Below are positions 18,775 to 51,065 of a DNA stretch of 64,000 nucleotides, piece by piece (position 1 is the stretch's first letter; the number at the start of each line of letters is the position of its first letter). A program made the translations under genes and the position numbers. Origin of the DNA: Patescibacteria group bacterium (GTDB taxonomy: Bacteria > Patescibacteriota > Gracilibacteria > UBA1369 > PNNO01); the NCBI GenBank assembly GCA_042577965.1, contig JBHPDK010000001.1, positions 17,537-81,536 of the forward strand. Reading direction: 5' to 3'. The notes under the pieces were generated by a model that was given only the letters and a program-made list of their open reading frames with translations, was not told the origin of the DNA and ran no database searches.

Positions 18775-21453
18775 CTATTTCTTCGGCTTAAACTTGCCCT
18801 TTGGTAGTTCTCGCTTCTCCCCTTCTTTTAGTTCCTTTTTCTCTTTAGCTGTGCTCCATCTATTAATCTTATCTTCAACCATTTCGCGCTTTTTAGCGTA
18901 GCGTTCACGAACAACTTTTCTGATTCGATCTGAGCGTCCTTCCTCAACCTCCAATTCTGGTGGAGGAAGGGTATCTAAAGAGAATGTTTTTGAAGGCATT
19001 CCATCAACTAAAAGCCTTGTATAAGCTGTATATTTGCTTAAACTTACAAGATCAGCCGGCAAAACCTCTTCACCATACTGCTGAGACATATACTCTGCAT
19101 CATCAAATCCTATCTGCATTGATAAAATAGTACCAACGTTACCAAATACAGCATCACGCACTTCATCAGGCATTTGTGCTATATACTGATTCGCCATTGT
19201 CAAATTAAGCTTATATTTACGTGCCTCAGAAAGAATTGTTGCAAACGCTTCTGTTGCAAAATTCTGGAACTCATCCACATATAAATAAAAGTCAGTACGG
19301 TCTTTTTCAGGAATATCCGCTCGACTCATCGCATCAATCTGGAATTTAGTAATGAGCATCGAACCTAATAGCGAAGAATTATCCTCACCCAGCTTACCTT
19401 TTGATAGATTAACAATAATAATTTTCTTCTTATCCATTGCAAATCTTAGGTTCACTGTACTCTTAGGTTGCCCCACAATGTTTCTAACAATAGGACTAGA
19501 TAAAAACTGGCCAACTTTATTCATGATCGGTGAAATCGCTTCAATCTTCATTCTATCCTGCATTGGTTCAAACTCTTTTTCCCAAAAGGCTCTTAAAACC
19601 GGATCTTCAAGTTTTCGTACAACTTTTCGTCTATAATCCTTATCCTGTAAAATTCGTGTAATTCCAAGCATTGTTGTATTTGGATAATGCAGCAATGATA
19701 GGATTGTATTCCTTAAAATATGCTCTAAACGCGGCCCCCAACTATCTGCATAAATCTTTTTAAAGATTCCAACAAGACCTGAAGAAATAATTGTATTTAA
19801 TGATGGATCTTTTGTCTCAAGCATATTAAATGCAATCGGGAAGTCGCGATCGGTAGGGTCAAATAAAATAACATCATTAGTTCTGTTTGCAGGTATAAAA
19901 TCCAAAACACTTTCAGCTAAATCTCCATGCGGATCAATAACAGCAACACCTTTACCTGCCTGGATATCGCTAAATATCATATTTTCAAGTAGAGTCGTCT
20001 TACCCATACCGGTTTTACCAATAATGTATACGTGACGCCTTCTATCCAGACCTTTAATTCCAAACGTCTTACGAATTCCTCTAAAATTACTTCTTCCCAT
20101 TAATGTTAAATCATCAGCAAGTTCGCCTTTTGGCTCAGGTAAATCAACAGGTGGCTCAAGTTTACGTGACTTAACCCAGAATATATTTGGGGTAGCAACA
20201 GTTTGATTTGGAAGATGATAAACTGTAGCAAGCTCTTCAACATTTAAAACAAAAGGATCATCAATTACTCTTGAGCGATATTTATCCAAAGCTTCTTTAC
20301 CACTAATATAATTATTTATTTTAAATCCATTAATCTGAGGGATATTAAACTGCTTAAACGAACCTGCAATCTCTCTTAATTTAATCTTAGCGCTTTCCGG
20401 ATTTTTATTTTTTTGCAGATAAAGTATTCTTACATTTGCTTCATATAAAAGCTTAACTACTTTATCCATTGCTGCACCAGCTGAACTCTCGCGTTCATGT
20501 GATTTTGAAGTTAAATCTTCAATATCATCATCAGAGCTTGCACGATCATCAGCTTTAAATGAAATCTTAGTACCTACTTTTAGGCCTTGCAGCCAAAAAA
20601 CAAAATACATAGGGAAGAAAACAACGCGCCATATTTTATTGCGCGTACAGTACATTTTAGTATAAGTCTTTTGAAGCTTCTCAATATTCGCCCAAACACC
20701 TTTATTTACAATCTTCACACATTTAGTAAATAAAATACGCCATTTATCTGATAAAGGCCTTACAACAACCTGTATCCATGCCTGCTCTTCAACATCATTA
20801 AGTTTTGCTAAAGTAGCTGTTACACCTGCAATAGGGTCAACAGCCATACGCGTAATCTTATCTTCAAACTGAACATACCTTTTAATAGGGTAAATTACAG
20901 GATCAGTAAAAGTTAGTTCAGTACCATAAATATTTTTAAATGGATCAAAGTCTTTAAATTCTTTTTTTGGTTGAATTTTTGGAAGATCATTAACAGGCAC
21001 CAAAGCTTCTTCGTTGGCTGGCTTTTCTAAATTTTCACCCATTGAAACCTCCATTTTTTCAATAATCGAATAATCTTTTACTTCTTCAATCTCCACATCA
21101 GGATATTGCGCATAAATCTGCCCTTCAATAAAATTCTTATATTTAACAGGGAAAGCCACATAAAATTTAATATGACTTCCTAAATTAGCTATTTCTAAAC
21201 TAATTCTATCCTGTGTTGTTCCAAATAAAGTTCGCCAAAATCCAAGTTTATGATAAATCCCATGCATTGATGAAAAAATCTGCTCAGCAACAATAGGCCC
21301 TGTTTCGTTCTCTTTACTAACACGCACTTCTAAGACCTGAAATCTTTTAGCAAATTGACGCTGTTTCGCGAGTTTTTGTCTTAATAACTCGAGAAGTACA
21401 AGCGCTGCGTAAACTCCTAATAATATTAGAGCTATCGTAATAAATGTGGTCAT
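18775..21453 (-). CDS. VirD4/TraD/TrwB-like type IV coupling-protein-family P-loop ATPase with a long N-terminal extension
   Basis: N-terminal TM helix. Walker A IIGKTGMGKTTLL at about residue 480, then VIDPHGDL, Walker B YLYVDEFQNF, and LTMANQYIAQM. Confidence 0.8.
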   Translation of the reverse strand: MTTFITIALILLGVYAALVLLELLRQKLAKQRQFAKRFQVLEVRVSKENETGPIVAEQIFSSMHGIYHKLGFWRTLFGTTQDRISLEIANLGSHIKFYVAFPVKYKNFIEGQIYAQYPDVEIEEVKDYSIIEKMEVSMGENLEKPANEEALVPVNDLPKIQPKKEFKDFDPFKNIYGTELTFTDPVIYPIKRYVQFEDKITRMAVDPIAGVTATLAKLNDVEEQAWIQVVVRPLSDKWRILFTKCVKIVNKGVWANIEKLQKTYTKMYCTRNKIWRVVFFPMYFVFWLQGLKVGTKISFKADDRASSDDDIEDLTSKSHERESSAGAAMDKVVKLLYEANVRILYLQKNKNPESAKIKLREIAGSFKQFNIPQINGFKINNYISGKEALDKYRSRVIDDPFVLNVEELATVYHLPNQTVATPNIFWVKSRKLEPPVDLPEPKGELADDLTLMGRSNFRGIRKTFGIKGLDRRRHVYIIGKTGMGKTTLLENMIFSDIQAGKGVAVIDPHGDLAESVLDFIPANRTNDVILFDPTDRDFPIAFNMLETKDPSLNTIISSGLVGIFKKIYADSWGPRLEHILRNTILSLLHYPNTTMLGITRILQDKDYRRKVVRKLEDPVLRAFWEKEFEPMQDRMKIEAISPIMNKVGQFLSSPIVRNIVGQPKSTVNLRFAMDKKKIIIVNLSKGKLGEDNSSLLGSMLITKFQIDAMSRADIPEKDRTDFYLYVDEFQNFATEAFATILSEARKYKLNLTMANQYIAQMPDEVRDAVFGNVGTILSMQIGFDDAEYMSQQYGEEVLPADLVSLSKYTAYTRLLVDGMPSKTFSLDTLPPPELEVEEGRSDRIRKVVRERYAKKREMVEDKINRWSTAKEKKELKEGEKRELPKGKFKPKK

Positions 21454-21467
21454 GTTCTGTTTACTTT

Positions 21468-21926
21468 TTAAGGACTATCGTAAGGTCCCTTTTGATCAGT
21501 CCCCTTTTCCCTATGTAAGTCTAAATAATTTTTAAGAATAAGTGAAGCTGCAATTATATCTGATTCTTTTTTTCGCTTATCTTTTTTCATATCCAGAGAT
21601 GTAATTATACTATCACTTTCCACGCTTGTCAACCTTTCATCCTGATACTTTATTGTGATTTGGAGTTTTTGGCTCAACAGAGCCCCAAAAGCCTCAACTT
21701 TTTTTGTTGTTTTTGTCTTATTTCCTTCCATATTTAAGGGATATCCAAGTACAATTTCTCTTATATTTTCTGCATCACAAATAAGCTTAATTTCACTAAT
21801 AATAAATTCATTTGATTTATTTTCTATTGATGTTCTTCCAAACGCCATTTGCCTTTCTTCATCAGAAACAGCAACGCCAATTCGCTTAGCGCCCCAATCT
21901 AAACCTAAGATCTTGCCTTTTTGCAT
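21468..21926 (-). CDS. ruvX: Holliday junction resolvase-like protein RuvX/YqgF
   Basis: ILGLDWGAKRIGVAVSD N-terminus. 152 aa. Confidence 0.88.
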   Translation of the reverse strand: MQKGKILGLDWGAKRIGVAVSDEERQMAFGRTSIENKSNEFIISEIKLICDAENIREIVLGYPLNMEGNKTKTTKKVEAFGALLSQKLQITIKYQDERLTSVESDSIITSLDMKKDKRKKESDIIAASLILKNYLDLHREKGTDQKGPYDSP

Positions 21927-22375
21927 TATGATTTAGCTTTTATCTCAACTTTAACATTTGCAACCACTTTGTCTGTTAATTTAACTTTAAATTTATGTAC
22001 GCCAACTTTTTTAATTGGCTCTGCAAGCTCAATTTGCTTTTTATCAACTTTAATCTTAGCTTCTTTTTCAAGCGCTTTTACAAGTTCTTTTTCACCAATA
22101 GATCCATATAATGTATCTTTATCAGTTGTTTTAGTTTCAATAGATAAAGTTGTTGATTCAAGAAGACTCACAAGATTTTCAGCTTCCTTGGAAACTTGTT
22201 CTTTTTCTTTAACAATTTTCTCCATTTCTTTTTCAGCCCATTTTAGTCTGTTTGGAGTTGCAGCAAAGGCAAGCCCCTTTGGCTGAAGAAAGTTTCTAAA
22301 ATAACCATCTTTAACTTTTTTAACCTCGCCTCTTTTACCAAGATCTTTAACATTTTTAGTTAATATTACCTGCAT
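21926..22375 (-). CDS. rplI: 50S ribosomal protein L9
   Basis: [36 protein letters not shown]. Confidence 0.92.
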
Positions 22376-22444
22376 GATATTTAAGTTTATTTAATTAAAA
22401 AGCTTAAAAAATATAGAGGAAAAGCGCTCATAAGTAAAGAAAAA

Positions 22445-22630
22445 TTATTCTACGGATTCTTGTTCCTCAGCCAGACCTGCTCTTTTTTTTGCTTCTATTC
22501 TTCGTAATACTTTAATTAATCCGCAGTTTTGTCTTATGTGTTCTATCATTCCAGAATAATAAGATCTTCTGCTGCAGCTAGTTTCTGCCCTTTCTGCTCC
22601 ACTATCTTGCGTTCTATCACATTCTTCCAT
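22445..22630 (-). CDS. questionable 61-aa ORF
   Basis: The only ORF in a roughly 320-nt gap. No SD sequence and no recognisable family. It may be non-coding. Confidence 0.2.
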   Translation of the reverse strand: MEECDRTQDSGAERAETSCSRRSYYSGMIEHIRQNCGLIKVLRRIEAKKRAGLAEEQESVE

Positions 22631-22694
22631 ATTTAAAAAAGTTAATTAATCAGGAAAGAATAATATATTATTATTGAAATTTTGCAATATTTAA

Positions 22695-24476: not shown

Positions 24477-24482
24477 AAAGAA

Positions 24483-24698
24483 TTAAGCGAATAAATATAT
24501 AACCGAGCTAAATACAAATAAAATAGCCAAAATAACAGTGAATCTAAACAAAACCTTCTCTGCTCCTCTTTTACTTACATGAAATCCGCCACTTCCACCA
24601 AATGTAGCTGAAAGCCCAGCACTTCTTTGTTGCGAAAGTATAGATAAAATAAGCAAAATTGCTATAACCATTTGAAATATTTGAATAAATTCTTTCAT
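24483..24698 (-). CDS. secG: preprotein translocase subunit SecG
   Basis: Two TM helices flanking SATFGGSGG. 71 aa. Confidence 0.85.
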   Translation of the reverse strand: MKEFIQIFQMVIAILLILSILSQQRSAGLSATFGGSGGFHVSKRGAEKVLFRFTVILAILFVFSSVIYLFA

Positions 24699-24703
24699 AA
24701 ATT

Positions 24704-25072
24704 CTAATGTTTAAAAAATAGATTAGTGGCCCAGTTCACGATTCCCAGAACTATGGCAGCAATAATATACGCTCCTAAGCCGGCAAAATAAAGCCGAACA
24801 TCTCTGAATTCCATAACATTAATCACCCATTGGGTTAAAAACAAAATCACAGCATTAATAACAATTAAAAAGAGCCCAGCTGTAATAATCACAAAAGGCA
24901 GGCTTAAAATCTTCATTAAAGGCTTAACAAAAGCGTTTAGTAAACCAATAATAATTCCTCCAATAATAAAAAGTTTGATTCCTCCCTCACCAGTTACTTC
25001 ATTCAAAAACTCAACAACAATGAATAATGTAACAGCATTAAGAAGAATTCCAATTAAGATGCGTTTTACCAT
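24704..25072 (-). CDS. phage-holin-4/DUF360-type membrane protein
   Basis: Four TM helices. FVKPLMKILSLPFVIITAGLFLIVINA is typical of the family. Confidence 0.7.
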   Translation of the reverse strand: MVKRILIGILLNAVTLFIVVEFLNEVTGEGGIKLFIIGGIIIGLLNAFVKPLMKILSLPFVIITAGLFLIVINAVILFLTQWVINVMEFRDVRLYFAGLGAYIIAAIVLGIVNWATNLFFKH

Positions 25073-25140
25073 ATTTTTTTTCTTTAAGAGTCTTTAATTG
25101 TCGACGAAAAGTATAAGGAAAAAGAGGGGCAAATGCAATG

Positions 25141-25166
25141 TTTAAAATCCATGCCCGGGCATGGAG
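25141..25166 (-). terminator. hairpin after ileS
   Basis: Perfect palindrome TCCATGCCCGGGCATGGA (25148-25165) directly after the TGA stop, followed by TTTT on the minus strand. Confidence 0.5.
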
Positions 25167-25168
25167 AA

Positions 25169-28100
25169 TCATTCTTCTCTTCTCACTCCAATTACAACTT
25201 GCTGGCCTTCAATTTCAACTTTTTCCTCTTTTTCCCATGAAAATTCGCTACCCTGTTGAAGTTCGATTGCCAAAGTTTCGCGCTTTATATAGTCAGCAAA
25301 CTGCGTTACTGCTTTTTCAACTTCTCCCTGGGCTTTTACTTGCAAATAAATACGTTCATAAACCTCGTAATCAGCTTTTTTACGCATATCCTGAACAAAT
25401 CTAACAATTTCACGAGCATAACCTTCATAGCGCAAGTCGTCAGTAATTTTTGTATCAAGAACTACTACAAATCCTGCTTCACCCTGCACATCAAATCCTT
25501 CTTTTCCTTCAAATCCAACTTCAACTTCTTCGTCTTCAAGTATAAACTCCCCTACTTTAACTTTGCCGTCTTCGAGTTCTTTGTAAATACCTTCGCGAGC
25601 ATCCTGGATTATTTTTTGAACATCTTTACCGTATTTTGGTCCAAGTTTTTTAGCATCAGGTTTAATAGTTTTTTGTACAACTTCTCCAACTTCAGTTAAA
25701 ATCTCTAGCTTTTTAACATTTAATTCTTCCAAAATCACATCTTTTTGAGCTAAAACCACATCCGCATTCACACTTTCAGGTAAACCTATCTGTACCTTTG
25801 CTAAAGGTTGCCTTACTTTTATTTGAACTTTTGCTCTTACACCATGACCCAAGTTGACAACGTGACGAACAACTCCAATTTCTTCATTCAGATCTTTATT
25901 TATCATCTTTTTATTCGAAGTTGGCCAATCGCATAAATGAACTGAATCTTCGCTATCTTTATCGTTCTTCGTTAAATTTCTGTAAATTTCATCTGCAACA
26001 AAAGGCATAAAAGGAGCAATAAGTTTCGTGAATTCCTTAAGAACTATATACAAAGTTGCATAAGCTTCGTTTTTATCATTATCATTTTCAGACTTCCAAA
26101 AACGTCTTCGGCTTCGCCTTACATACCAGTTAGAAAGATTATCCACAAAATCCATCATTGGGCGCGTACCTTTGGTTAAATTATAATCATCTAAATGAGA
26201 TGTGCACTGCTCAATTAACTGATGTAGCTCAGATAAAATCCACTGATCCAGCTTATGTTTTGGCTTAAACTCGCCTTCTTTAACTGTATTTGGATCCCAA
26301 TTATCAATGTTTGCATAAGTCACAAAAAAGCTATAGGTGTTCCATAAAGTGAGTAGGAATTTTTTAATAAGTTCATCAACATGCTGTTCACTAAACCTTA
26401 CATCTTCAGCTAAAGGTGCAGTTGATGAGTACATGAAAAATCTTGTAGCATCCACTCCCCTGGTATCAAAAAGCATATTAGGGTCAGGGAAATTCTTTTT
26501 ACGTTTAGATAACTTTTCACCGTCTGCTGCCAGCAAAATCCCATTCACTATAACGTTTTCAAATGCTGGTTTATCAAACAAAATTGTTGCTAAAACATGC
26601 AAAGTATAAAACCATCCACGAGTTTGATCCAATCCCTCAGCAATAAATTGTGCAGGGAAGTTATCTTCAAATAGTTCCTTATTCTCAAAAGGATAATGAA
26701 GCTGCGCATATGGCATTGATCCTGATTCAAACCAGCAATCCAGAACCTCAGGAATTCGCGACATTGTTCCGTCGCATTTTTCACATTTAAACTTAATTTC
26801 ATTTATATATGGGATATGGAGATCAAGATCACCATGACGTTGCGGCAATTTTTCATCGAGCGAATTTTTCTTGAGTTCTTCAACTGAGCCAATTGCCTTA
26901 TGATGCTCGCATTTTTCACATTCCCAAATTGGAATCGGACATCCCCAAAACCTATTACGTGAAATATTCCAATCGCGCACACCTTCAAGCCATTTCCCGA
27001 ATCTTCCATCTTTAATATGTTCTGGTTGCCAGTGAATTTTTTGGTTATTTTTTAATAAACGATCTTTAATATCAGTAACTTTAATGAACCATGCTTTTGT
27101 TGAGTAGTTAAGGAGCGGAGTATCACAGCGCCAGCAATGAGGATACGAGTGCCGATAATTTTCTTTAGTGAAAAGTAACGAATTTTCTTCAAGCCAGTCA
27201 GCAATATTTTGATCCTGACCTTTAACAAACTTGCCTGCCCAAGGCTCAACTTCGTCTTTAAAAGTTCCGTCTCCATTAACATGCTGCAAAACTTCAAGCC
27301 CATGTTTTTGGCCGGCATTCAAATCATCTTCACCAAATGCAGGAGCAATATGAACAACACCGGTTCCATCTTCAGTCGATACAAAATCCTCTAAAATAAT
27401 TACATATGCCTTATTCTCAAGCTTGCCCTCATAAAATGGAAACAAAGGTTTGTACTCTTTTCCTTCAAGAGTTTTTGGATCAACATCTTCTAGAATTTTG
27501 TGATCACTATCCCCCATCACTTTTTCAACCAAATCCTTAGCTAAAATATATTTATCATCTCCAGCCTGAACTTTTACATATTTAACTTCAGGACCAAGCG
27601 CAAGTGCAACGTTTCCTGGCAAAGTCCATGGGGTTGTTGTCCAGGCAAGAATATAAGTACCAGGCTCATCTTTTAATTCAAATTTTGCAATTATCGAAAG
27701 ATCTGTTACATCTTTATAACCCTGGGTTACCTCAAAATTCGATAAAGGAGTCTCACATCGAGGACAGATATGCATACTTTTATGACCCTGATAAACCATA
27801 TCTTTATCCCAAATTTGCTTAAACACCCACCAAATCGACTCCATATAATTAGTTTCTAAAGTCGCATAAGTTTCACTATGGTCTACCCATCTTCCAATAC
27901 GATTTAAAAGCTTCTCCCATTCATTTGTATATGTAAACACGCTTTCACGGCATTTTTCATTAAAATTTTCTATTCCAAATTTTTCAATATCTTTTCTTCC
28001 TGAAATTTCGAGATTTTTTTCAATTTCATATTCAACAGGCAGACCATGACAGTCCCAACCATTTGTTCGGGGAACATAATAGCCTTTCATGGTCCAATAT

Positions 28101-28327
28101 CTTGTAACTGCATCTTTTAAAGCATTAGCAAGAATATGACCATAATGAGGAAGCCCGTTTGCAAACGGAGGCCCATCAAAAAACACATATTTCTTTTCTT
28201 TTTTTCTGCGTGCAACAGACTCTTCAAAAATATGCTGATCTTCCCAGAATTTAAGCATGTTTTGCTCCATTTCAGGGAAGGATTGTTTTGCATCCACATC
28301 TTTAAATGATTTTTTATTTGAATTCAT
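25169..28327 (-). CDS. ileS: isoleucyl-tRNA synthetase (long, type-2-like)
   Basis: PPFANGLPHYGH (HIGH region) and KLSKRKKN (KMSKS region). 1052 aa. Confidence 0.97.
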   Translation of the reverse strand: MNSNKKSFKDVDAKQSFPEMEQNMLKFWEDQHIFEESVARRKKEKKYVFFDGPPFANGLPHYGHILANALKDAVTRYWTMKGYYVPRTNGWDCHGLPVEYEIEKNLEISGRKDIEKFGIENFNEKCRESVFTYTNEWEKLLNRIGRWVDHSETYATLETNYMESIWWVFKQIWDKDMVYQGHKSMHICPRCETPLSNFEVTQGYKDVTDLSIIAKFELKDEPGTYILAWTTTPWTLPGNVALALGPEVKYVKVQAGDDKYILAKDLVEKVMGDSDHKILEDVDPKTLEGKEYKPLFPFYEGKLENKAYVIILEDFVSTEDGTGVVHIAPAFGEDDLNAGQKHGLEVLQHVNGDGTFKDEVEPWAGKFVKGQDQNIADWLEENSLLFTKENYRHSYPHCWRCDTPLLNYSTKAWFIKVTDIKDRLLKNNQKIHWQPEHIKDGRFGKWLEGVRDWNISRNRFWGCPIPIWECEKCEHHKAIGSVEELKKNSLDEKLPQRHGDLDLHIPYINEIKFKCEKCDGTMSRIPEVLDCWFESGSMPYAQLHYPFENKELFEDNFPAQFIAEGLDQTRGWFYTLHVLATILFDKPAFENVIVNGILLAADGEKLSKRKKNFPDPNMLFDTRGVDATRFFMYSSTAPLAEDVRFSEQHVDELIKKFLLTLWNTYSFFVTYANIDNWDPNTVKEGEFKPKHKLDQWILSELHQLIEQCTSHLDDYNLTKGTRPMMDFVDNLSNWYVRRSRRRFWKSENDNDKNEAYATLYIVLKEFTKLIAPFMPFVADEIYRNLTKNDKDSEDSVHLCDWPTSNKKMINKDLNEEIGVVRHVVNLGHGVRAKVQIKVRQPLAKVQIGLPESVNADVVLAQKDVILEELNVKKLEILTEVGEVVQKTIKPDAKKLGPKYGKDVQKIIQDAREGIYKELEDGKVKVGEFILEDEEVEVGFEGKEGFDVQGEAGFVVVLDTKITDDLRYEGYAREIVRFVQDMRKKADYEVYERIYLQVKAQGEVEKAVTQFADYIKRETLAIELQQGSEFSWEKEEKVEIEGQQVVIGVRREE

Positions 28328-28404: not shown

Positions 28405-28637
28405 CACAAAAAACGCCTTTCTGGGTTCAAGGACGAACTTCTAACTGGTCCGCGGTACCACCTTGATTCCTATAAAAGGCACTTAATTTGATTTTTTACA
28501 ATGTTTTCTCATTGAAGGGTTCTATTTTCGCTAATTTATTGATAGCGATTTCTTCCCTCTGCGTGGCCAATTGGCGCTTAAAAGAGTGATAACTCTTCTA
28601 TATTTCTTACGCATTTACCGTTAGGTGCATTTGCACT
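28405..28637 (-). promoter_or_regulatory. T-box leader (tRNA-sensing riboswitch) of ileS
   Basis: Minus strand reads AATCAAGGTGGTACCGCGGACC (core at 28451-28462), matching the T-box consensus GGTGGTACCGCG. Downstream is a hairpin CG(T)CCTT...AAGGCG plus T6 (28409-28436). AUC codons occur upstream (GAAATCGC, CTATCAA). Confidence 0.8.
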
Positions 28638-28643
28638 CTATGT

Positions 28644-32825: not shown

Positions 32826-34133
32826 ATGAATGATTTGAAATTTTCGCAGGCTCAGGTCTCGGCTGTGCTCGGTACCCAATGGGGTGATGAAGGTAAAGGT
32901 AAGCTTGTAGATATTTTAGCTGAGAGCGCTGATGTTATTATTAGGGCTGCTGGAGGAGCAAATGCTGGTCATACAATTTATGTTCCCAATAAAGAAAACC
33001 CTGAAGAAACAACAAAATTTATTTTTCACCTTATTCCAAGTGGATGTTTTCATGAAGGCAAAGAGATCATGCTAGGAAACGGACTTGTGATTCATTTGGG
33101 AACTTTAATGGAGGAACTTGATACTTTGAAAAACCATGGAATAGATTTAACCGGGAAATTATATATTTCTGATCGTGCACATATTGTTTTTGGATATCAT
33201 ATGAAAATTGATGGACTTGAAGAAGAAAGAAAAGGTGATAAAAAGGTTGGAACTACTTTAAGAGGAATCGGCCCTGCTTATCAGGATAAAATCGCGCGAA
33301 GAGGAGTGCGTATTGGCGAACTTTTAGATTTTGATAAGTTCAGTGAACATGTACGCGCAACATTCATTCAGCTTCAAAGAATGTACCCAGATTTAAAACA
33401 CGATATTGATAAAGAACTTGAAGAAATAAGAAAATTGCTTGGATTCTTACGGCCATTTATTACTGACACTGCACTTTACGTTAACAAAGCAATTGATGAT
33501 GGCCGCAAAGTTTTGGTTGAGGGTGCAAATGGTACTCATCTCGACATAGACCACGGCACATACCCTTTTGTTACATCATCTAATCCAACAGGTGGAGGCC
33601 TACACACAGGTACAGGAATTGGTTTAAATAAAATCACAGATGTTATTGGGATAATGAAAGCTTATACAACAAGAGTTGGAGCAGGTGTGTTCCCTACTGA
33701 GCTCGACAATGAACTTGGCGAAACAATTAGAGAAAAAGGCGGTGAATACGGTGCAACCACTGGCAGACCTCGAAGATGCGGTTGGTTTGATGCTGTAGTT
33801 GGCCGCTACGCAGTAAGGATTAATGGCCTAACAGCTGTTAATTTAACCAAACTGGATGTTCTTGATGATCTTCCTCATATAAAAATCTGCACAGGCTATA
33901 AATATAAAGGAAAGCCAATGGATTCAATGCCTTCAACAATCGACCAATATGAAGATTTAGAACTCGAATATATTGAAATGGATGGCTGGATTAAAGATAC
34001 TTCAGAAGCACGCAAATTCGAAGACTTACCTGAAAAAGCTCAAAAATACGTTCTTAAATTAGAAGAGCTTATAGGCTGCCCTGTTAAATATATTGGTGTT
34101 GGAATGCGAAGAGATCAGATGATCTTACGCTAA
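32826..34133 (+). CDS. purA: adenylosuccinate synthetase
   Basis: GTQWGDEGKGK and GRPRRCGW motifs. Confidence 0.95.
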   Translation: MNDLKFSQAQVSAVLGTQWGDEGKGKLVDILAESADVIIRAAGGANAGHTIYVPNKENPEETTKFIFHLIPSGCFHEGKEIMLGNGLVIHLGTLMEELDTLKNHGIDLTGKLYISDRAHIVFGYHMKIDGLEEERKGDKKVGTTLRGIGPAYQDKIARRGVRIGELLDFDKFSEHVRATFIQLQRMYPDLKHDIDKELEEIRKLLGFLRPFITDTALYVNKAIDDGRKVLVEGANGTHLDIDHGTYPFVTSSNPTGGGLHTGTGIGLNKITDVIGIMKAYTTRVGAGVFPTELDNELGETIREKGGEYGATTGRPRRCGWFDAVVGRYAVRINGLTAVNLTKLDVLDDLPHIKICTGYKYKGKPMDSMPSTIDQYEDLELEYIEMDGWIKDTSEARKFEDLPEKAQKYVLKLEELIGCPVKYIGVGMRRDQMILR

Positions 34134-36575
34134 CTCGCGCATGTTTTTAAGAAATCTTCTTTTGAATTTAAATGTTACCTGCAGAGTCGTCCAAAAATCT
34201 CTAAAACCTCTACGTCTTGGCCACTCATTTGGCCTTAAATGATTATTAAAATAATACATTGCTTCAGCTCGTGAATTTGGCAAAGGAATGCCTTTTCTTA
34301 GATTTCTAATAAATGGTTTTGACCCACCTGGACCGTTACGCCAGTATAAATACATTACTCTTATCCATGAGCTTCTCATTCTACCTGACATTGAATCTAT
34401 TCTGTCAAAAATACTGTCAATTGATTCAAGGCTTCTCATTCTTCTTGAATAACCAAACATAAATACATTAAACATTGCACATCTTTGAAAAGGTGTAGCA
34501 AGTCCTGGCATTGGAGCGCTAAAATCTATTTTCATCATTTTTTCTACATCAATTCCGTGTTTTGCTAATTGTCTTCTGTAGAATCTTGCTCTTCTGGAAT
34601 TTCCAAAATATTTTTTTTGTGCATTTTTCCATACTCCGCTTAAAATCTGAAATTCTCCTGCTGCTGAAGAAAGTCCAACTTTATAAGTTCTGCCTGATTT
34701 TTTTCTATTAAAACAATAAGCGTTATTACCGGATTCCACATATCCAACAGCGTCGCATAAAGCAGTATGTTTTTTATAATGCCTCCTGGCAACTCCTGAC
34801 ATTTCTGCAGTATATCGATACGCATCTCTCATTTTATATTTTGATTGTAAAATATCTAACCTTTGATTAATACCCATTGTTGCTATTCTGTATGCATCGC
34901 GCCTGACTGATTTATACCAATTTGCATGCTCCTGAGACAATCTGTTACCTACTCTAACGGTGAATGGTATGCTGCCTCTTGCAATAAGATCACGTTCTGA
35001 TGCATCAGATATATAACGAGCACTTTCTCTTGGTAATTTACCATTAGTCATTCTAGGAGCCGGTGTTCTGGGTTCTGGGACCACATCAGTAAATCCTGTT
35101 GGCTTAAATATCGCAGTAACAGGATATTTTTTTAGATCATATTCTTTAATTTTTTGTTTGCCTTTTGTATTGCCAAACCAGCTAGCTACTTTTATTATTC
35201 TCTGGCTTTTATTTACCCAACCTAAAACCATTACTCCATGACATGCAGTAACACGATCTGCCTTTGTTCTAGTATTAATCCATATTTTATCACCTGGTTG
35301 TATTTTATCTAAATGTTTAGCTCTGGCATATTTACCTGAAATTCTGCAATCATATCTGCTTTTATCAGTTTCTGGTTTAAGTCCTTTTTTTGGATCTCCC
35401 CCTACAAAAGCATAAGATATATCAGCATATGGAGTGCTTTTACTTGTTATACCTGCAATTGCCCATATTCTATCAACCCAGTCACCACAATTTTTCGCAT
35501 ATATATGATTTTCAGGCTTCATTATAAAATTCGCTACTTTTGTCAGTCGTGCTTGTATAGATAAACCTTTAAGGCTGCCAATTTTATCTCTAACTTCCCT
35601 GATTTTAGCTAATTTGATTGGAAGCTTTTTACCAGTAAATGTTCTTTGTTTTTCATATCTCTTAAAAAATGCCTCATCTTCCTGTGCATATTTTGATTTT
35701 GCATATTTTGCATAAGAATCTTTATCAATTTCCGCATATTTTTTACCAACCTTTTTTCTAAATTTTTTTGTAATATCTGGCTGATTGTTATGAAATGCCC
35801 ACTGATCTTTTGAATGAATTTCAATATAACCAAAATTATCGTAACAACCATTCTTGCCTTTATTTTGACCTTTCAGGCCGATTCTTCTTAAACTGGTTCT
35901 TTTTCGACTGGGATTACCACCTTCATGTTTTGTCATTCCCCTCCATTCAGCTTTTGCCATATCAGCCCATCCCCACTTCATTTCTGCATCATTGTTTCCT
36001 AAAAAATTTACTGTATAAAAAGTATTTGGTTTAAACTTTGAATAAATAGCATCACTTCTCCACTCTTTTGGATTCAACTTAAATGTACCTTTTATTTGAG
36101 TCGTAAAAGCAGCTATTGTAATTCCAGGATACTTATCTTCAAGTTTTTCAATAAATCCAATTGGAGCAATTTTAATTCTTTCTCTTAACGTTTTTACGGA
36201 GTCAAGCCCTTTAGCAAAGGCTTCAACACTTTTAATATATTGTAATGAATCAGTAAGCTTTTTAGTGGAATCTTTTACTCGATCTTTTTCAGATTTTAAT
36301 TTTTTATCCAATTGAGCTTTCTTATCTTTTGCTTTCGCTTTATCACCGGATTCAAATTTGTGGCCAGTTTTAGCTGATAGTTTAGCTCTGTCTTTGGCTT
36401 TTTTAGCTTTTAATTCAGCTGCTTCTGCGTCTTTTTTAGCTTTTAATTTTTCCGCTGCTGTTTTTGGCCTTCTTGCAGCTCTTTTAGCTTTTTCTGCATC
36501 GCTAAGTTTAGAAGATTTTTTTAAATCTTTTGGATCTTTAAATATAAGCCTGTTTTCGTTAAAATTTATGTTCAT
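34125..36575 (-). CDS. 816-aa basic protein with putative NlpC/P60-like and SLT-like cell-wall hydrolase domains, no signal peptide
   Basis: K-rich coiled-coil N-terminus. NCGDWVDRIW...IQPGDKIWIN...ACHGVMVLGW shows a Cys/His papain-like pattern. VESGNNAYCFN...SAAGEFQILSGVW shows an ES...G-x-x-Q pattern typical of lytic transglycosylases. Confidence 0.8.
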   Translation of the reverse strand: MNINFNENRLIFKDPKDLKKSSKLSDAEKAKRAARRPKTAAEKLKAKKDAEAAELKAKKAKDRAKLSAKTGHKFESGDKAKAKDKKAQLDKKLKSEKDRVKDSTKKLTDSLQYIKSVEAFAKGLDSVKTLRERIKIAPIGFIEKLEDKYPGITIAAFTTQIKGTFKLNPKEWRSDAIYSKFKPNTFYTVNFLGNNDAEMKWGWADMAKAEWRGMTKHEGGNPSRKRTSLRRIGLKGQNKGKNGCYDNFGYIEIHSKDQWAFHNNQPDITKKFRKKVGKKYAEIDKDSYAKYAKSKYAQEDEAFFKRYEKQRTFTGKKLPIKLAKIREVRDKIGSLKGLSIQARLTKVANFIMKPENHIYAKNCGDWVDRIWAIAGITSKSTPYADISYAFVGGDPKKGLKPETDKSRYDCRISGKYARAKHLDKIQPGDKIWINTRTKADRVTACHGVMVLGWVNKSQRIIKVASWFGNTKGKQKIKEYDLKKYPVTAIFKPTGFTDVVPEPRTPAPRMTNGKLPRESARYISDASERDLIARGSIPFTVRVGNRLSQEHANWYKSVRRDAYRIATMGINQRLDILQSKYKMRDAYRYTAEMSGVARRHYKKHTALCDAVGYVESGNNAYCFNRKKSGRTYKVGLSSAAGEFQILSGVWKNAQKKYFGNSRRARFYRRQLAKHGIDVEKMMKIDFSAPMPGLATPFQRCAMFNVFMFGYSRRMRSLESIDSIFDRIDSMSGRMRSSWIRVMYLYWRNGPGGSKPFIRNLRKGIPLPNSRAEAMYYFNNHLRPNEWPRRRGFRDFWTTLQVTFKFKRRFLKNMRELA

Positions 36576-37922: not shown

Positions 37923-39554
37923 CTAGGCTATCTCCTTCTCCTGAATCTGATATTTCTCAGGAACAGGCGAAAGTAATGATTTTTTTGTATCCTGTGTGGC
38001 TCGAAAAGATAATCTCCATGGAAAAATAAACTTTTCAGCTCTTTCTTCGAGTCTAACTTTCCAGTGTTTATCAGGTAATGGAAGCTGTTTTTGCTTGAGT
38101 ATGGCAAGTTCACGGGCCTGAATATTATATGGACGCTTTGTTTTCTTACATAATAAAAATTTACCTTTCAAATCATCGCTTTTAACATCCATGCTTATCA
38201 TTGAACCATTATAAATAAGATCCGGAGCATATTCATTTTCAGCGCTCTTATCCATCCATTCAAATCCTAATTTTTCAGCTAATTCCTGATCCACATAAAA
38301 ATATTCATGCGCCATGGAGTTATTTAAAGCATGAGGGCTACAATATGGAGGAAAAAACTGGCCCCATTCTCCCCTTTTCTTCATATCTTCGATTATTTGT
38401 TCAACTAAAATTTTATAATCTTTTTCGCAGTATTGTTTATTTAAAATGCAGAATTTTTTTCTTTTAAGACCAATGCATCCAAAACAGTGTTCACAGCCTG
38501 GGCAACTATCACAATAAGTTAAATATCTGCAATTATTCCAGCAGTCAAAACACATCCGAATATAATAAACATTATAGCCGCAACTATTTGAGTGGTAGCA
38601 AAGCTCCCCAGGATCACCCCAAAGATCAAAATCCAGACAATTTTTACATTTTCTTAAGCTGGAACTGTTCATGCAATCCTGACTATATTCAACAATATAA
38701 GAATTAAGGCAATTTTGAGAAAAGCTAACATCACTACCAGTACAATTTTCGCAGCCCACAATATTGGAATATTTATGGATGTATGATTCTCTTAGTTTTT
38801 CTAATTGCTCATAACAATGCTCAATAGTTTCATTAGTAAGCGGCTGAAGTTCTTTAATTCTCTTTTCATATTCTTCTTTAGTTAACTGTTCATTCAAAAC
38901 ACAATACTGCTTGCCAACAAGGCCCGTACACATAAAACAATTTTTGCATCTGCGGCAGTCATATAAAAACTGGCTGTCAGTACAATTAGTGCAATAAGCA
39001 CTAAAATCAAGATTATAACAGGTGCGACAACTAACAATCTGATAACATAAAGTACATTCATGAGCTATGCTCATATCCATGCATGTTTTTGAACGTTCAG
39101 TATTAATTGAATAGAGACAATCCTCGTTATCACCAGAAGCAAAAATCATATAGCAATCCTTACAATGATTGGAACAATTAACATATGGTGAATTCTCCAT
39201 AGTACTATCACATGCGATGCTCATACGCGGAACCTGAAGTTGCAATTTTCTAAATTGTTTAAAGAACGATTCATCAGGATTATATTCTGCCTCTGGCACA
39301 TCAAATTCCTCTTTCCACCAAAGATCATGCCTATAAACCTTAAATGGCGACTCTTGTGGAAACTGGCTAATAATCTTTTCACCTGTCATGTCACACTTTC
39401 GCCAAAAAACATTAATTTCATTTCTAAAAGCATAATGAAAAAAACGAGTCTGCTCAGGAGTTTGACCATGCAGAGGCACATCAAACTTCTTATGCAAATC
39501 TAAATAAGCGAAGTCATATTCCGGTTTTGCGTTTAAATCAATTTTTAAGCGCAT
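37923..39554 (-). CDS. 543-aa cysteine-rich protein with two tandem Cys-repeat modules, no signal peptide
   Basis: 39 Cys by my count. Two blocks of closely spaced C-x2-C / C-x-x-x-C units. Each block ends in G-L-x-x-K-x-(Y/F)-C-(V/I)-L-N-x-Q...(E/K)(E/D)Y. Confidence 0.8.
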   Translation of the reverse strand: MRLKIDLNAKPEYDFAYLDLHKKFDVPLHGQTPEQTRFFHYAFRNEINVFWRKCDMTGEKIISQFPQESPFKVYRHDLWWKEEFDVPEAEYNPDESFFKQFRKLQLQVPRMSIACDSTMENSPYVNCSNHCKDCYMIFASGDNEDCLYSINTERSKTCMDMSIAHECTLCYQIVSCRTCYNLDFSAYCTNCTDSQFLYDCRRCKNCFMCTGLVGKQYCVLNEQLTKEEYEKRIKELQPLTNETIEHCYEQLEKLRESYIHKYSNIVGCENCTGSDVSFSQNCLNSYIVEYSQDCMNSSSLRKCKNCLDFDLWGDPGELCYHSNSCGYNVYYIRMCFDCWNNCRYLTYCDSCPGCEHCFGCIGLKRKKFCILNKQYCEKDYKILVEQIIEDMKKRGEWGQFFPPYCSPHALNNSMAHEYFYVDQELAEKLGFEWMDKSAENEYAPDLIYNGSMISMDVKSDDLKGKFLLCKKTKRPYNIQARELAILKQKQLPLPDKHWKVRLEERAEKFIFPWRLSFRATQDTKKSLLSPVPEKYQIQEKEIA

Positions 39555-42685: not shown

Positions 42686-42738
42686 AGCGGTTAAGATTTT
42701 AACTTCAAGAAATTGTTAATGCAAGCTATACTCTAATT

Positions 42739-43299: not shown

Positions 43300-43310
43300 A
43301 TCTATTTATT

Positions 43311-46138: not shown

Positions 46139-46141
46139 ATA

Positions 46142-47683: not shown

Positions 47684-47832
47684 TTATTTTTTTATATTTA
47701 TTTCTATCTTATATATTTTACCATAATTGTGCACTACAGGCAATGACTTACCGAGTAACTTTAATTAAAGATTCGCTGACAAAAGCCATTACATACTTAC
47801 CGAGTAAGTCGAATAACTTTTTTACTCACAAA

Positions 47833-49668
47833 CTATTCGTCTCGTTTTAAAATAGACATAAACGCCTCCTGTGGAATTTCGACATTCCCTACTTTTTTTA
47901 ATCTTTTTTTACCTTCTTTTTGCTTCTTTAAAAGTTTGTCTTTTCGGGTGCGGTCTCCGCCATATAATTTGGCAGTTACATCTTTTCGTAAAGCTTTTAA
48001 AGTTTCACGTGCGATTATCTTTGAGTGAATTGCAGCCTGCAGCGCAACTTCGTACTGCGTACGAGGTATTAATTTTTTTAGCTTTTTAACAATTGATACA
48101 CCTGTATGGTAAGAATCTCTTCTATGAACAATAACAGACAAAGCTTCGACTATATTGCTTCCAACTAAAATATCCAGTTTCACAAGATCCTCCTCCCTAT
48201 ATTCCAAATAATCATAATTCATTGAAGCATAACCGGATGTTCCGCTTTTAAGAGCATCATAAAAATCAATAACAATTGAAGCCAAAGGAATCTCAAAAGT
48301 CAAAATAACACGATCCTGATCAATATATTGCATATTCTTATTAACTCCCCTTCTGTCCTGAACCAGTTTCATCACAACTCCCACATAATCTTTTGGAGTT
48401 ATTACTTCAAGTTTCATCCATGGCTCTTTAATGGCTGTAAGTTTCGCAGGATCCGGCAATTGAGCCGGACTTGAAATGAATTTTTCAGATCCATCATTCA
48501 TAACTGCAATATATGAAACTGAAGGCGAAGTTATTATTAAACTTAAATTATATTCGCGTTCAAGTCTTTCCTGTACGATTTCCATATGAAGCATTCCCAA
48601 AAATCCGCATCTAAATCCGAATCCTAATGCGCCTGATTGTTCAGGTTCAAACGATAAAGCAGAATCATTTATTTGAAGTTTAGAAAGCGCATCGCGTAAA
48701 AGTGGATAATCATCGCCATCAGTACAAAATATACCTGCAAATACATAAGGCTTTACTTCTGTGTATCCTTCTAAAGGTTTAGCACCTTCCAAATCAACTC
48801 GTTCATCTCCTGTTTGCCAGATAGTGTCACCAACTCTAGCCTCAGCAACTGTTTTTAAACCAGTGACAATATAACCAACCTCTCCGGGTTTGAGTTCATC
48901 GGCAGGGCGATATTCTGGCTTAAAATAACCACATTCCATAACTTCAATTTCTTTTTTTGTATGCAATAAATGGACTTTTTCTCCTTTTTTAATCCCACCG
49001 CTCATCACCCTTACATATGCCACCACTCCTTTATATGAATCATAAACTGAATCAAAGATTAATGCCTTAAATTCATCAGAAGTTGTTGATTCTTTTGGGG
49101 GAGGAACGCGTTTAATCACTTCTTCTAAAACAGCTTCGATATTTGTTCCCTCTTTAGCTGAAACAGCAATTATTTCTTCTTTTGGGATTCCAAGTGCATT
49201 TTCAATTTCCATAGACACTTTTTCAACATCTGCAGAAGCTAAATCAATTTTGTTTATAACAGGAATAACTTCTAAATTATGTTCAATTGCCATATAACAA
49301 TTAGCAAGAGTTTGAGCCTGAATTCCCTGGCTGGCATCAACTATTAAAATAGCTCCTTCACAAGCCGCTAAACTACGTGAAACCTCATAACTAAAATCAA
49401 CATGCCCGGGAGTATCAATTAAATTAAGAATATAATCCTCTCCGTCATGATGCCAGTCCATTCTAACTGGTTGAAGTTTAATTGTGATTCCCCTCTCCTG
49501 TTCCAGTTCCATTGTGTCTAAATGTTGACCATGTTTCATATCACGCTTTTCAACTGTTTTTGTTATTTCAAGAAAGCGATCAGCCAAAGTGGATTTTCCG
49601 TGATCTATATGCGCAATAATGCAAAAATTTCTGATATTTTGTATAATTTTTTTGTTCAAGTCGATCAA
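47833..49668 (-). CDS. lepA: elongation factor 4
   Basis: IIAHIDHGKSTLADR and DTPGHVDF motifs plus the LepA C-terminal region. 611 aa. Confidence 0.96.
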   Translation of the reverse strand: MIDLNKKIIQNIRNFCIIAHIDHGKSTLADRFLEITKTVEKRDMKHGQHLDTMELEQERGITIKLQPVRMDWHHDGEDYILNLIDTPGHVDFSYEVSRSLAACEGAILIVDASQGIQAQTLANCYMAIEHNLEVIPVINKIDLASADVEKVSMEIENALGIPKEEIIAVSAKEGTNIEAVLEEVIKRVPPPKESTTSDEFKALIFDSVYDSYKGVVAYVRVMSGGIKKGEKVHLLHTKKEIEVMECGYFKPEYRPADELKPGEVGYIVTGLKTVAEARVGDTIWQTGDERVDLEGAKPLEGYTEVKPYVFAGIFCTDGDDYPLLRDALSKLQINDSALSFEPEQSGALGFGFRCGFLGMLHMEIVQERLEREYNLSLIITSPSVSYIAVMNDGSEKFISSPAQLPDPAKLTAIKEPWMKLEVITPKDYVGVVMKLVQDRRGVNKNMQYIDQDRVILTFEIPLASIVIDFYDALKSGTSGYASMNYDYLEYREEDLVKLDILVGSNIVEALSVIVHRRDSYHTGVSIVKKLKKLIPRTQYEVALQAAIHSKIIARETLKALRKDVTAKLYGGDRTRKDKLLKKQKEGKKRLKKVGNVEIPQEAFMSILKRDE

Positions 49669-49724
49669 TTATTATTTATATCTTGAGAGATTTTAGCAAA
49701 TGAGTAATGGTTTGTAAATCATTC

Positions 49725-49753
49725 TTGAAATAAATTCGTTTTTTTGGTATAAT
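49725..49753 (+). promoter_or_regulatory. sigma70-like promoter (TTGAAA-17 nt-TATAAT, TG-extended)
   Basis: TTGAAAtaaattcgtttttttggTATAAT. Confidence 0.55.
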
Positions 49754-49794
49754 AAATAGAAATAAATAAAATATAAAAATAAAATTTTACGCTA

Positions 49795-50235
49795 ATGCAA
49801 GCCAAAGTCCCACAAAATGTACAAATGGCTGACAAAATCGTTGGTCCGCTTACTTTGCGCCACATGATTATAATTGGTGCTGGAGGTGGATTTGCATACC
49901 TTATATATACAATTCTATCAAGAAGTTATTATTGGGAAGTTTGGATTCTTCCTGTTGGAATTATAGTTGGATTAACACTTCTGATTGCATTTGTGAAAAT
50001 TTATAATGTTGGATTCGGTAAGTTTGTAATTCTTTTTTTAGAATATATATTTTTACCAAGAAAAAGACACTGGCTTAAATCAAGTGCAGAAATTATAGGG
50101 ATGAAGCCAATCCAAGTTGAAAAAAAAGGAATTAAAAAGAAAACCAAAGATAAAGGAGCCCAGACAGAAAAAACAATCAGAGAAATTGATGATATAACAA
50201 AAATTCTCGACACTTACGGCCGGGATAATAACTAA
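49795..50235 (+). CDS. PrgI-family (VirB3-like) membrane protein
   Basis: VPQNVQMADKIVGPLTLRHMIIIG followed by two TM helices, as in PrgI-family T4SS proteins. 146 aa. Confidence 0.65.
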   Translation: MQAKVPQNVQMADKIVGPLTLRHMIIIGAGGGFAYLIYTILSRSYYWEVWILPVGIIVGLTLLIAFVKIYNVGFGKFVILFLEYIFLPRKRHWLKSSAEIIGMKPIQVEKKGIKKKTKDKGAQTEKTIREIDDITKILDTYGRDNN

Positions 50236-50246
50236 AAATCAACAAC

Positions 50247-51065
50247 ATGCCAGAAGCAACAAAAACAAAAAAAGATGAAAAACTGAAATCAAATGATAAA
50301 GCAGTTAAACAAGCTAAAAAAGGTGCTGCTGCATCAAGTTCTCAGCTTTTTATGAAAATAGCTGAAATACGTGATGATACTGTTGTACTAAAAAACGGTG
50401 GTGTAAGAGCAATTATAAAAGTTTCGAGTATTAACTTTAATTTAAAATCTGAAGATGAACAAAACGCAATTATTTACTCTTATCAGGGATTCCTTAATTC
50501 AATCGAATTCCCTGTTCAGGTTGTTGTTAGATCCAAAAAACTTGATATAGATAATTATATAGATAGTTTAAATGATTTAGGAGAAAAACAAACCAATGCA
50601 CTTTTACAAAGGCAAACTTATGAATATATGGATTATATTCAACGACTAGTAGAATATGCAGATATTATGGAAAAAGAATTCTATGTAGTTGTTCCTTTTG
50701 ATCCTTTTAGATCAGTTAAACCAAACATAATTCAGAGATTCTTCCAAAATATGTCGCCTAAAGATACGTTTACTGAGTTCAGTAAACGTCACAAAGAATT
50801 TATGCTGCTTAAGAAAAATCTTAATCAAAGAGTAAATACAGTAAAAAGTGGCCTTGAAAACACAGGACTGCAGGTTGAACAACTTAATACAAAAAATTTA
50901 ATAGAATTATTTTACGAAATTTACAATCCATTATCAGCGCGAACTCAGAAATTCGAAGATATTGAAGAAATAAACATTAAGATCGATGATGATATTCTGG
51001 ATGCAGCAATGAATGAAGAATTAGGAAACGAAGAAGGAGGCGAAGAAGGCACTACAGAAGCTTAA
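50247..51065 (+). CDS. 272-aa protein resembling only the N-terminal domain of VirB4/TraC-type ATPases
   Basis: FMKIAEIRDDTVVLKNGGVRAIIKVSSINFNLKSEDEQNAIIYSYQGFLNSIEFPVQVVV...FYVVVPF matches my recollection of VirB4 N-termini. No P-loop is present. It ends in an acidic tail 56 nt before the 5S gene. Confidence 0.7.
   Translation: MPEATKTKKDEKLKSNDKAVKQAKKGAAASSSQLFMKIAEIRDDTVVLKNGGVRAIIKVSSINFNLKSEDEQNAIIYSYQGFLNSIEFPVQVVVRSKKLDIDNYIDSLNDLGEKQTNALLQRQTYEYMDYIQRLVEYADIMEKEFYVVVPFDPFRSVKPNIIQRFFQNMSPKDTFTEFSKRHKEFMLLKKNLNQRVNTVKSGLENTGLQVEQLNTKNLIELFYEIYNPLSARTQKFEDIEEINIKIDDDILDAAMNEELGNEEGGEEGTTEA

Follow-up and report, generated by a model that had tools for sequence, protein, structure and literature searches.

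Candidate components of a dispersed chromosomal type IV secretion system, and an unlinked murein-hydrolase candidate, in a Gracilibacteria genome segment

We have analysed a 64-kb stretch of a Patescibacteria genome (contig JBHPDK010000001.1 of assembly GCA_042577965.1, positions 17,537 to 81,536; hereafter the window), which very probably carries three components of the near-universal, MPF-FATA-derived chromosomal type IV secretion system (T4SS) of the Patescibacteria, arranged in the dispersed layout of the Gracilibacteria. The three are an ATPase of the VirD4 or type IV coupling protein (T4CP) type, a small membrane protein of the PrgI/VirB3 family and, directly downstream of the latter, a protein of the TrsD family. 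The T4SS part is already known, being an instance of a described system in a described layout, and the window is thus a clean example of the Gracilibacteria type and adds no new kind of system. The one lead beyond the literature, and a modest one, is a family of wall hydrolases without membrane anchor or secretion signal, represented in the window by a candidate of 816 amino acids (aa), which is built of three modules not captured by Pfam.

An earlier note on this DNA, made from the letters alone, had proposed a T4SS-like toolkit of four open reading frames (ORFs), and genes for proteins of 892, 816, 146 and 272 aa lie exactly where it placed them. The features discussed below are collected in Table 1.

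Table 1. Position, strand and basis of assignment of the features discussed in the text (position 1 is the first letter of the window).
Feature	Position	Strand	Basis
Basic, signal-less, repeat-containing orphan protein, 1240 aa, downstream of the ATPase gene	14645..18367	-	Composition; variable slot
Helical basic ORF, 104 aa, travelling with the 1240-aa gene	18379..18693	-	56% identical to a 104-aa ORF upstream of the large gene in the closest relative (L086)
Promoter-like site before the 104-aa ORF	18729-18757	-	11/12 match
VirD4/T4CP-type coupling-protein-like ATPase, 892 aa	18775..21453	-	Pfam; NCBIfam; Walker motifs; conserved position
Sigma-70-like promoter match within ruvX (in its 3' part) and upstream of the ATPase start	21604..21632	-	Perfect (12/12); consensus match only
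Murein-hydrolase candidate, signal-less and basic, 816 aa	34125..36575	-	Alignment; profile search; Pfam domains of relatives; AlphaFold2 (AF2)/Foldseek
Hydrolase module C (residues 540-816), lytic-transglycosylase/lysozyme-like, invariant Glu-Ser near residue 614	34128-34958	-	Profile; model
Hydrolase module B (about residues 330-500), NlpC/P60-like Cys-His, Cys362 and His445	35076-35588	-	Alignment; Pfam domains of relatives
Hydrolase module A (about residues 120-320), conserved, function unknown	35616-36218	-	Profile search
Hydrolase K-rich N-terminus	36219-36575	-	Sequence modules
Sigma-70-like promoter match (11/12, extended -10) upstream of the PrgI-TrsD pair	49725..49753	+	Consensus match only; number of such sites not above that in shuffled sequence
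PrgI/VirB3-family small membrane protein, 146 aa	49795..50235	+	PF12666; two transmembrane (TM) helices; position
TrsD-family protein, 272 aa, soluble, acidic, without P-loop	50247..51065	+	NCBIfam; PF26593 in homologues; gene order

The PrgI-TrsD pair

The 146-aa protein matches PF12666 with 35.4 bits against a cut-off of 27 and has two TM-like hydrophobic helices (residues 24-42 and 46-82), which bears out its previous assignment to the PrgI family. A spacer of 11 nucleotides (nt) separates its gene from that of the 272-aa protein, which in turn ends 60 nt before a 5S rRNA gene; the statement that the T4SS-like genes do not form an operon is therefore right for the dispersed genes but not for this adjacent pair. 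The 272-aa ORF had been described as resembling the N-terminal domain of VirB4. This similarity is real, since the ORF matches positions 94-242 of the 894 positions of the NCBIfam VirB4_plasma model (E 1.9e-12); it also matches the NCBIfam TrsD (TrsD/TraD) model (E 4.9e-8), and its homologues bear the TraC-like Pfam domain PF26593 in precomputed annotation. A Walker A motif or P-loop was not found in the ORF, and the best 120 of its homologues are equally short. A search of 5.8 billion proteins returned 2,366 homologues, the best 120 of which are all 235-281 aa long and 59-83% identical to the window protein, and an alignment of 18 sequences has a mean column identity of 69%. Because of this uniform length among the best 120 homologues the idea of a fragment has to be given up: judged by sequence comparison, the 272-aa protein is a complete standalone TrsD, a homologue of the VirB4 N-terminal region that is neither a VirB4 nor a truncated one.

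The genomic surroundings of TrsD were compared by scanning one genome per species with the TrsD alignment, which found 210 relatives. The best 80 loci all belong to Peribacteria, Peregrinibacteria, Gracilibacteria or unclassified Patescibacteria metagenome-assembled genomes (MAGs). In 77 of 82 loci the gene directly upstream of TrsD is a PrgI homologue, with gaps most commonly between -3 and +12 nt, and lepA is present in 70 of the 82; downstream there are either 5S/23S rRNA genes, as in many loci including the window, or a variable lineage-specific ORF. PrgI and TrsD are thus a conserved unit of two genes, flanked by lepA on one side and the 5S-23S rRNA genes on the other. PrgI is not adjacent to virB4 in the window, where it is followed by TrsD and then by the 5S rRNA gene, and a search of the 80 related loci up to 10 kb from TrsD detected no ATPase resembling T4CP or VirB4. 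With the pair at a fixed site beside the rRNA genes and virB4 elsewhere, the PrgI-TrsD pair is evidently the unit which selection keeps together.

Several other ORFs were seen in connection with TrsD. In at least eight related genomes it is followed by a member of a family of 680-750-aa proteins without Pfam domain or TM segment (for example L001, positions 10894-13074, and the loci L017-L026, downstream of TrsD), a family that is absent from the window. A further TrsD-linked gene beyond the rRNA genes was considered in the ORF at 56032-57927 and rejected: this ORF belongs to a MacB ABC transporter operon, in which it encodes an HlyD-type protein, and has no relationship to the protein of 726 aa found after TrsD in L001. 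The window also holds a Cys-rich ORF of 543 aa (37923-39554, minus strand) with many CxxC-like repeats and no family match, homologues of which (30% identity, E ~1e-70) lie directly downstream of TrsD in two genomes (L030 and L032). As a missed T4SS part it was discarded, having no P-loop, TM segment or family match, and the position of its homologues beside TrsD is probably a coincidence of variable slots.

The VirD4-like ATPase

The 892-aa protein scores above the Pfam cut-offs for several T4CP families, namely TrwB_AAD_bind (32.4 bits, cut-off 20.5), T4SS-DNA_transf (27.1, cut-off 20.1) and TraG-D_C (27.2, cut-off 22), so that calling it a T4CP-like ATPase was correct; DUF87 also exceeds its cut-off. 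Its best NCBIfam matches are likewise T4CP families (SXT TraD, CD1115 VirD4-like and TOL TraD). It falls far below the cut-offs of the equivalog-level NCBIfam T4CP models and therefore appears to represent a divergent T4CP subfamily. Sequence matches in the PDB are confined to the P-loop of TrwB and DotL. The N-terminus consists of one strong hydrophobic helix (residues 1-26), which is taken to be a membrane anchor; a second hydrophobic stretch at about residues 275-292 remains below threshold. Homologues carry an N-terminal DUF8128 domain (PF26449, precomputed Pfam), which is specific to the Patescibacteria. Walker A (G479-K-T-G-M-G-K485-T) and Walker B (Y723-L-Y-V-D-E728) are both invariant in 13 homologues.

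More than 2,700 homologues of the ATPase were found, and the best 120 are 60-88% identical and have the same domain set. The gene order in relatives, rplI-ruvX-ATPase-(variable slot)-pgk-ribH-ribE-ssb, was seen in four genomes whose ATPases are 88%, 83%, 82% and 64% identical to that of the window. No relaxase or T4SS partner gene lies beside the ATPase, the neighbours being rplI, ruvX and pgk. For comparison with the ATPase (60-88%) and TrsD (59-83%), the identity of lepA in the closest loci is about 80-86%. The complete chromosome OY969931.1 (1.37 Mb) is collinear with our sequence all the way from the ATPase to PrgI-TrsD, which are about 29 kb apart in the window. By these comparisons the ATPase, PrgI and TrsD are conserved to about the same degree as the housekeeping genes around them and occupy fixed positions in about 80 species; the window yielded no integrase, no relaxase and no other gene of a mobile element. 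This pattern indicates that all three belong to the chromosomal core, are under strong purifying selection and do not travel on a mobile element.

Two PHROG families deserve mention here. The family phrog_5156, of unknown function, matches residues 205-879 of the ATPase (E 1.5e-72). The family phrog_2666 is labelled 'terminase large subunit', a name that seems misleading because its profile matches both TrsD (profile positions 5-89) and the P-loop of the ATPase (profile positions 301-363), and thus looks VirB4-like. The possibility that the 892-aa ATPase is the displaced half of a split VirB4 was rejected, since its similarity to plasmid VirB4/DUF87 proteins is limited to the P-loop, its best profile matches are T4CP families, and its N-terminal domain is unrelated to TrsD (hhalign probability 0.3).

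Comparison with known secretion systems

The closest relatives of the window's proteins are MAGs with the labels Candidatus Peribacteria, Peregrinibacteria, Gracilibacteria or Patescibacteria, and the window is therefore assigned, on the evidence of these relatives, to a Peribacteria/Peregrinibacteria-type chromosome belonging to the candidate phyla radiation (CPR), GTDB class Gracilibacteria, using the standard genetic code. The T4SSs of this phylum have been surveyed in 3,035 genomes (Quinonero-Coronel et al., 2025; PMC12102498). In that survey the Patescibacteria VirB4 proteins form a monophyletic clade nested in MPF-FATA, TrsD is the most abundant T4SS component, VirB3/PrgI is widespread and relaxases are almost absent. 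VirD4-type T4CPs number 5,713, or about two per genome, of which only 148 lie near virB4, and VirB1 homologues are mostly not associated with virB4. Most of the other classes have a canonical cluster, VirB6-VirB3-TrsD-VirB4-VirB2; the association of TrsD and VirB3 with virB4 breaks down in the Gracilibacteria, in which it holds for only 4.7% of VirB3 genes and VirB6 is undetectable (PMC12102498).

The window agrees with this description in every respect that matters for its three core genes, and nothing essential differs. It has VirB3/PrgI, TrsD and a VirD4-type T4CP, all chromosomal, with the T4CP remote and no relaxase, and it shows the published Gracilibacteria-specific separation of TrsD/VirB3 from virB4 together with the lack of a detectable VirB6. 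Compared with the single cluster of other Patescibacteria classes, the window keeps only VirB3 and TrsD together, abutting the 5S/23S rRNA genes. None of the further T4SS families, VirB4, VirB6/PrgH, VirB8/PrgL, pilin or relaxase, was found at Pfam sensitivity in the scanned ORFs, which are nearly all of those in the window, and the previous remark that VirB6, VirB8, a relaxase and a full VirB4 are not visible here holds within that scope.

An older arrangement can be recognised in the MPF-FATA conjugation modules of pGO1/pSK41 type (PrgI/TrsC, TrsD, TrsE/VirB4, hydrolase, VirD4), in which PrgI is likewise followed by a standalone TrsD-like protein. The TrsD-like proteins of Firmicutes plasmids are 26-32% identical to that of the window over about 70% of its length (tblastn, E down to 7e-18); some of them are annotated as 'TrsD/TraD family conjugative transfer protein', and others lie unannotated between PrgI and DUF87 genes. 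On these plasmids a DUF87/VirB4 ATPase of 636-657 aa comes after TrsD and the cluster includes a lysozyme/M23 hydrolase and VirD4, whereas none of these follow in the window. Because the plasmids place TrsD between PrgI and DUF87/VirB4, the ancestral order is PrgI-TrsD-VirB4. The window ATPase shares with TrwB, VirD4 and TraD an N-terminal membrane helix and a P-loop ATPase domain that carries the signatures TrwB_AAD_bind, T4SS-DNA_transf and TraG-D_C. It differs from them in that DUF8128 (about 250 aa) and about 190 further residues separate the TM helix from the ATPase domain, the latter starting at about residue 470, and in its housekeeping context (rplI-ruvX), with no relaxase or oriT partner.

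By analogy with VirB3-VirB4 and with the PrgI-TrsD-VirB4 order of Firmicutes plasmids, PrgI, as a two-helix membrane hairpin, would hold the soluble TrsD at the membrane. The pair may then dock a separately encoded VirB4 ATPase, its gene lying outside the window, to form a platform at the cytoplasmic membrane, to which the T4CP-like ATPase may feed substrates unless it has been exapted for another role. Such a machine would most likely serve interaction with a host cell, by protein export or some other transfer, and not conjugation, because a relaxase is lacking and because Saccharibacteria cannot grow as epibionts without the homologous genes. The essential cluster is that of Southlakia epibionticum (SEML1_0006-0019; Wang et al., 2023, PMC10633639; 2025 review, PMC12857230), in which the PrgI, TrsD and VirB6 homologues are essential and the T4CP homologue is not (PMC12102498). 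In the one species that has been tested, the Patescibacteria T4SS is thus required for epibiotic growth.

A murein-hydrolase candidate

The 816-aa protein had been described as a two-domain wall hydrolase. Among the profile searches that were to support the earlier assignments, those for PrgI and for TrsD as a VirB4 N-domain relative did so, whereas the 816-aa protein has no direct match in Pfam (SLT and CHAP included), in NCBIfam or among PDB sequences, and its assignment comes from deeper profile searches and structure. It has no hydrophobic segment, an isoelectric point (pI) of 10.2 and 22% K+R. Searched with a profile, 1.84 billion representatives yielded 180 matches, which resolve into three modules. 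In module B, Cys362 and His445 are invariant in the alignment of relatives, Pfam NLPC_P60 is reached by 2 of 62 relatives (E<=0.001), and in others the module is joined to Peptidase_M23, Muramidase, Glucosaminidase or Amidase_6. CHAP domains are among the top Foldseek matches of a low-confidence whole-protein model (pLDDT 64), with E values of 0.5-0.9 that are not significant. A profile of module C (15 sequences) matches only C-type lysozymes among PDB chains (E 0.085-0.8), in an alignment that falls exactly on the catalytic 'ES.YN...ST..G.FQI..W' motif, and the Glu-Ser, Asn, Gly and Gln are invariant in the 15 sequences. The AF2 model of module C (pLDDT 93, pTM 0.90) has as its top six Foldseek matches MltE (three entries), Slt (two) and Slt70, with probabilities of 0.97-0.57 and E values of 0.05-0.5, and in two relatives (P0245 and P0246) a Pfam Glucosaminidase domain takes the place of module C. 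Each of these lines is sub-threshold when taken alone; because profile, structure and domain-swap evidence agree, the protein is most likely a murein hydrolase, a candidate at superfamily level that would combine peptidase and glycan-cleaving activities. The hydrolase call thus survives at that level, with three modules in place of two domains.

Its proposed part in the T4SS fares less well. The comparison is with PrgK of pCF10 and TraG of pIP501, which likewise combine a lytic-transglycosylase-like module and a papain-like Cys-His module (CHAP or NlpC/P60) in one large protein. In the 816-aa protein the order is reversed, with the Cys-His module before and the lytic-transglycosylase-like module last; it has no N-terminal membrane anchor, possesses an additional K-rich N-terminus and an additional conserved module, and lies outside any T4SS cluster. 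Its gene is located between purA and tRNA-Leu, as it is in L005, and the syntenic relative in OY969931.1 adjoins purA. Close full-length relatives number only six and are 41-55% identical; in a contig whose ATPase is 88% identical to ours the relative reaches only 54%, so the protein evolves much faster than the T4SS genes. It is lineage-specific and unlinked to the T4SS genes, and because of the reversed order, the lack of an anchor and the absence of a nearby T4SS gene its membership of the T4SS is not supported, although it may still have a VirB1-like role.

On balance we lean towards a hydrolase that is independent of the T4SS, acting either as an autolysin on the cell's own wall or as a lytic weapon against the host wall that is released by another route, and not as an analogue of VirB1/PrgK. 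Besides the location, architecture and rate of change just described, this is favoured by the way in which its modules recombine, as those of general wall hydrolases do, with domains of the Glucosaminidase, M23 and Muramidase families, and by the finding that VirB1 homologues are mostly away from virB4 in this phylum (PMC12102498). Two points pull the other way: a wall hydrolase without signal or anchor needs an export route, for which the T4SS is one candidate, and one module-B relative bears a T4SS_pilin domain. If the hydrolase were T4SS-dependent, it would bear on what the machine exports.

The 1240-aa protein and the substrate idea

The 1240-aa protein encoded downstream of the ATPase has no Pfam, NCBIfam or PHROG match, and no homology was found between it and the 816-aa protein. 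It resembles the latter in having no hydrophobic segment, a pI of 10.2 and 22% K+R, and the observation that the two giant proteins of the window lack Sec signals is thus confirmed. The gene and the adjacent 104-aa ORF fill the variable slot between the ATPase and pgk. A counterpart exists only in the closest relative (L086), where it is 1457 aa long and the common part comprises the C-terminal 190 aa or so, at 46% identity, and a repeated module. The gene is absent from L087, L003 and L004, whose ATPases are 83%, 82% and 64% identical to ours and which have unrelated genes in the slot. By this distribution it is a fast-evolving passenger of a variable slot, and its inclusion in the system finds no support: the link between the 1240-aa protein and the ATPase is adjacency in two genomes, nothing more. 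A phage origin of this protein or of the hydrolase was considered and dropped, as neither has PHROG matches.

The K-rich N-termini of the two proteins had been presented as what substrates of a dedicated exporter should have. Those VirB/D4 substrates that have been characterised are, to our knowledge, recognised via C-terminal signals or chaperones, and a helix rich in K at the N-terminus is not known to mark such substrates. The expectation finds no support and was not itself an observation; a substrate role for either protein is speculation from composition. That the Patescibacteria T4SS/T4CP exports the 816-aa hydrolase, and perhaps the 1240-aa protein, to breach or remodel the host cell wall is accordingly an improbable proposal, although, if true, the hydrolase (and perhaps its giant companion) would be the first candidate effectors of this system.

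Alternative explanations for the T4SS genes

It is quite possible, though it is not the view that we favour, that the DUF8128-T4CP ATPase has nothing to do with PrgI and TrsD, and is an exapted translocase of FtsK/HerA/VirD4-like type that handles, for instance, DNA or protein at the membrane, in which case the window would hold parts of two unrelated systems of common ancestry. The distance of about 29 kb from PrgI-TrsD, the constant position downstream of rplI-ruvX, and the 80 TrsD loci with no such ATPase within 10 kb are all consistent with this, as is the presence of most of its architecture in a phage-derived family, phrog_5156. The survey adds the figure of about two T4CPs per genome (148 of 5,713 near virB4), the non-essentiality in Southlakia and the suggestion of exaptation (PMC12102498). 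On the other side, genuine systems, too, often have their T4CP genes far from virB4 (PMC12102498), and the conservation of 60-88% shows that the protein matters, not for what.

The assignment of all three genes to the Patescibacteria T4SS has to be weighed against a number of observations, some of which concern the ATPase alone. Any functional link of PrgI-TrsD with the T4CP-like ATPase is putative, and the T4CP homologue of Southlakia is reported to be dispensable, with exaptation raised by the authors of the survey (PMC12102498). The match of TrsD to the curated NCBIfam TrsD model is far under the cut-off (33 versus 200 bits). Genes for a VirB4 ATPase, VirB6, VirB8 and pilin are not in the window, so that a complete machine is putative for this genome. 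As for expression, no RNA runs containing the PrgI-TrsD stretch were found, and only weak DNA matches came up, from sediment and marine metagenomes.

The assignment to the chromosomal T4SS remains the best explanation. That the genes are remnants of an integrated conjugative element, with the 272-aa ORF as a truncated VirB4, would fit the lack of a relaxase and of a VirB4 ATPase domain after this ORF, which ends 60 nt before the 5S rRNA gene, but it is very improbable and is essentially refuted by the conservation data, since the best 120 of the 2,366 TrsD homologues are all of similar length (235-281 aa) and 59-83% identical, and standalone TrsD occurs in intact plasmid systems too. In addition, about 80 species share one fixed chromosomal position, with no integrase or mobile-element genes nearby. 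High identity and fixed chromosomal positions argue that the ATPase, PrgI and TrsD are conserved working genes. The description of the genes as a 'fragmented, domesticated' system is hence apt in so far as a chromosomal, non-conjugative and dispersed T4SS-like toolkit of a host-dependent bacterium is what has been published (PMC12102498, PMC10633639, PMC12857230), but they are not fragmented remnants.

Other features of the window

The window has a G+C content of about 33% and is densely filled with housekeeping genes, including gatB, coaE, fmt, ssb, ribE/ribH, pgk, rplI, ruvX, secG, ileS, purB/E/C/A, glyA and lepA, and with RNA genes, namely one 5S-23S rRNA pair and four tRNAs. The rRNA operon is split (51125-63940): the 5S and 23S genes (minus strand) are followed by an HlyD/MacB-type ABC transporter operon (56032-61170, plus strand), tRNA-Ile (61285-61361, minus), a Wzy_C membrane protein (61390-63393, plus) and tRNA-Ala (63864-63940, minus), and no 16S gene was found in the 64 kb. 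An 86-aa ORF (55015-55275, minus strand) adjoins the 23S gene; it has two TM helices and no family match, and resembles small pilin- or holin-like proteins in size and topology.

A match to the T-box leader (28426-28615, minus strand) covers the full model, with 36.6 bits against a gathering score of 93 (E 4.6e-6). It sits in a G+C-rich gap of 614 nt immediately upstream of ileS (25169-28327, minus strand), which is the expected site for an Ile T-box riboswitch. Finally, a four-TM protein of the 'Phage_holin_4_2' family (24704-25072, minus strand) and SecG (24483-24698, minus strand) are encoded between ileS and an SBP_bac_5 gene. Since this arrangement of ileS, Phage_holin_4_2, SecG and SBP_bac_5 is kept in relatives, the Phage_holin_4_2 protein appears to be a core membrane protein and not a prophage holin.

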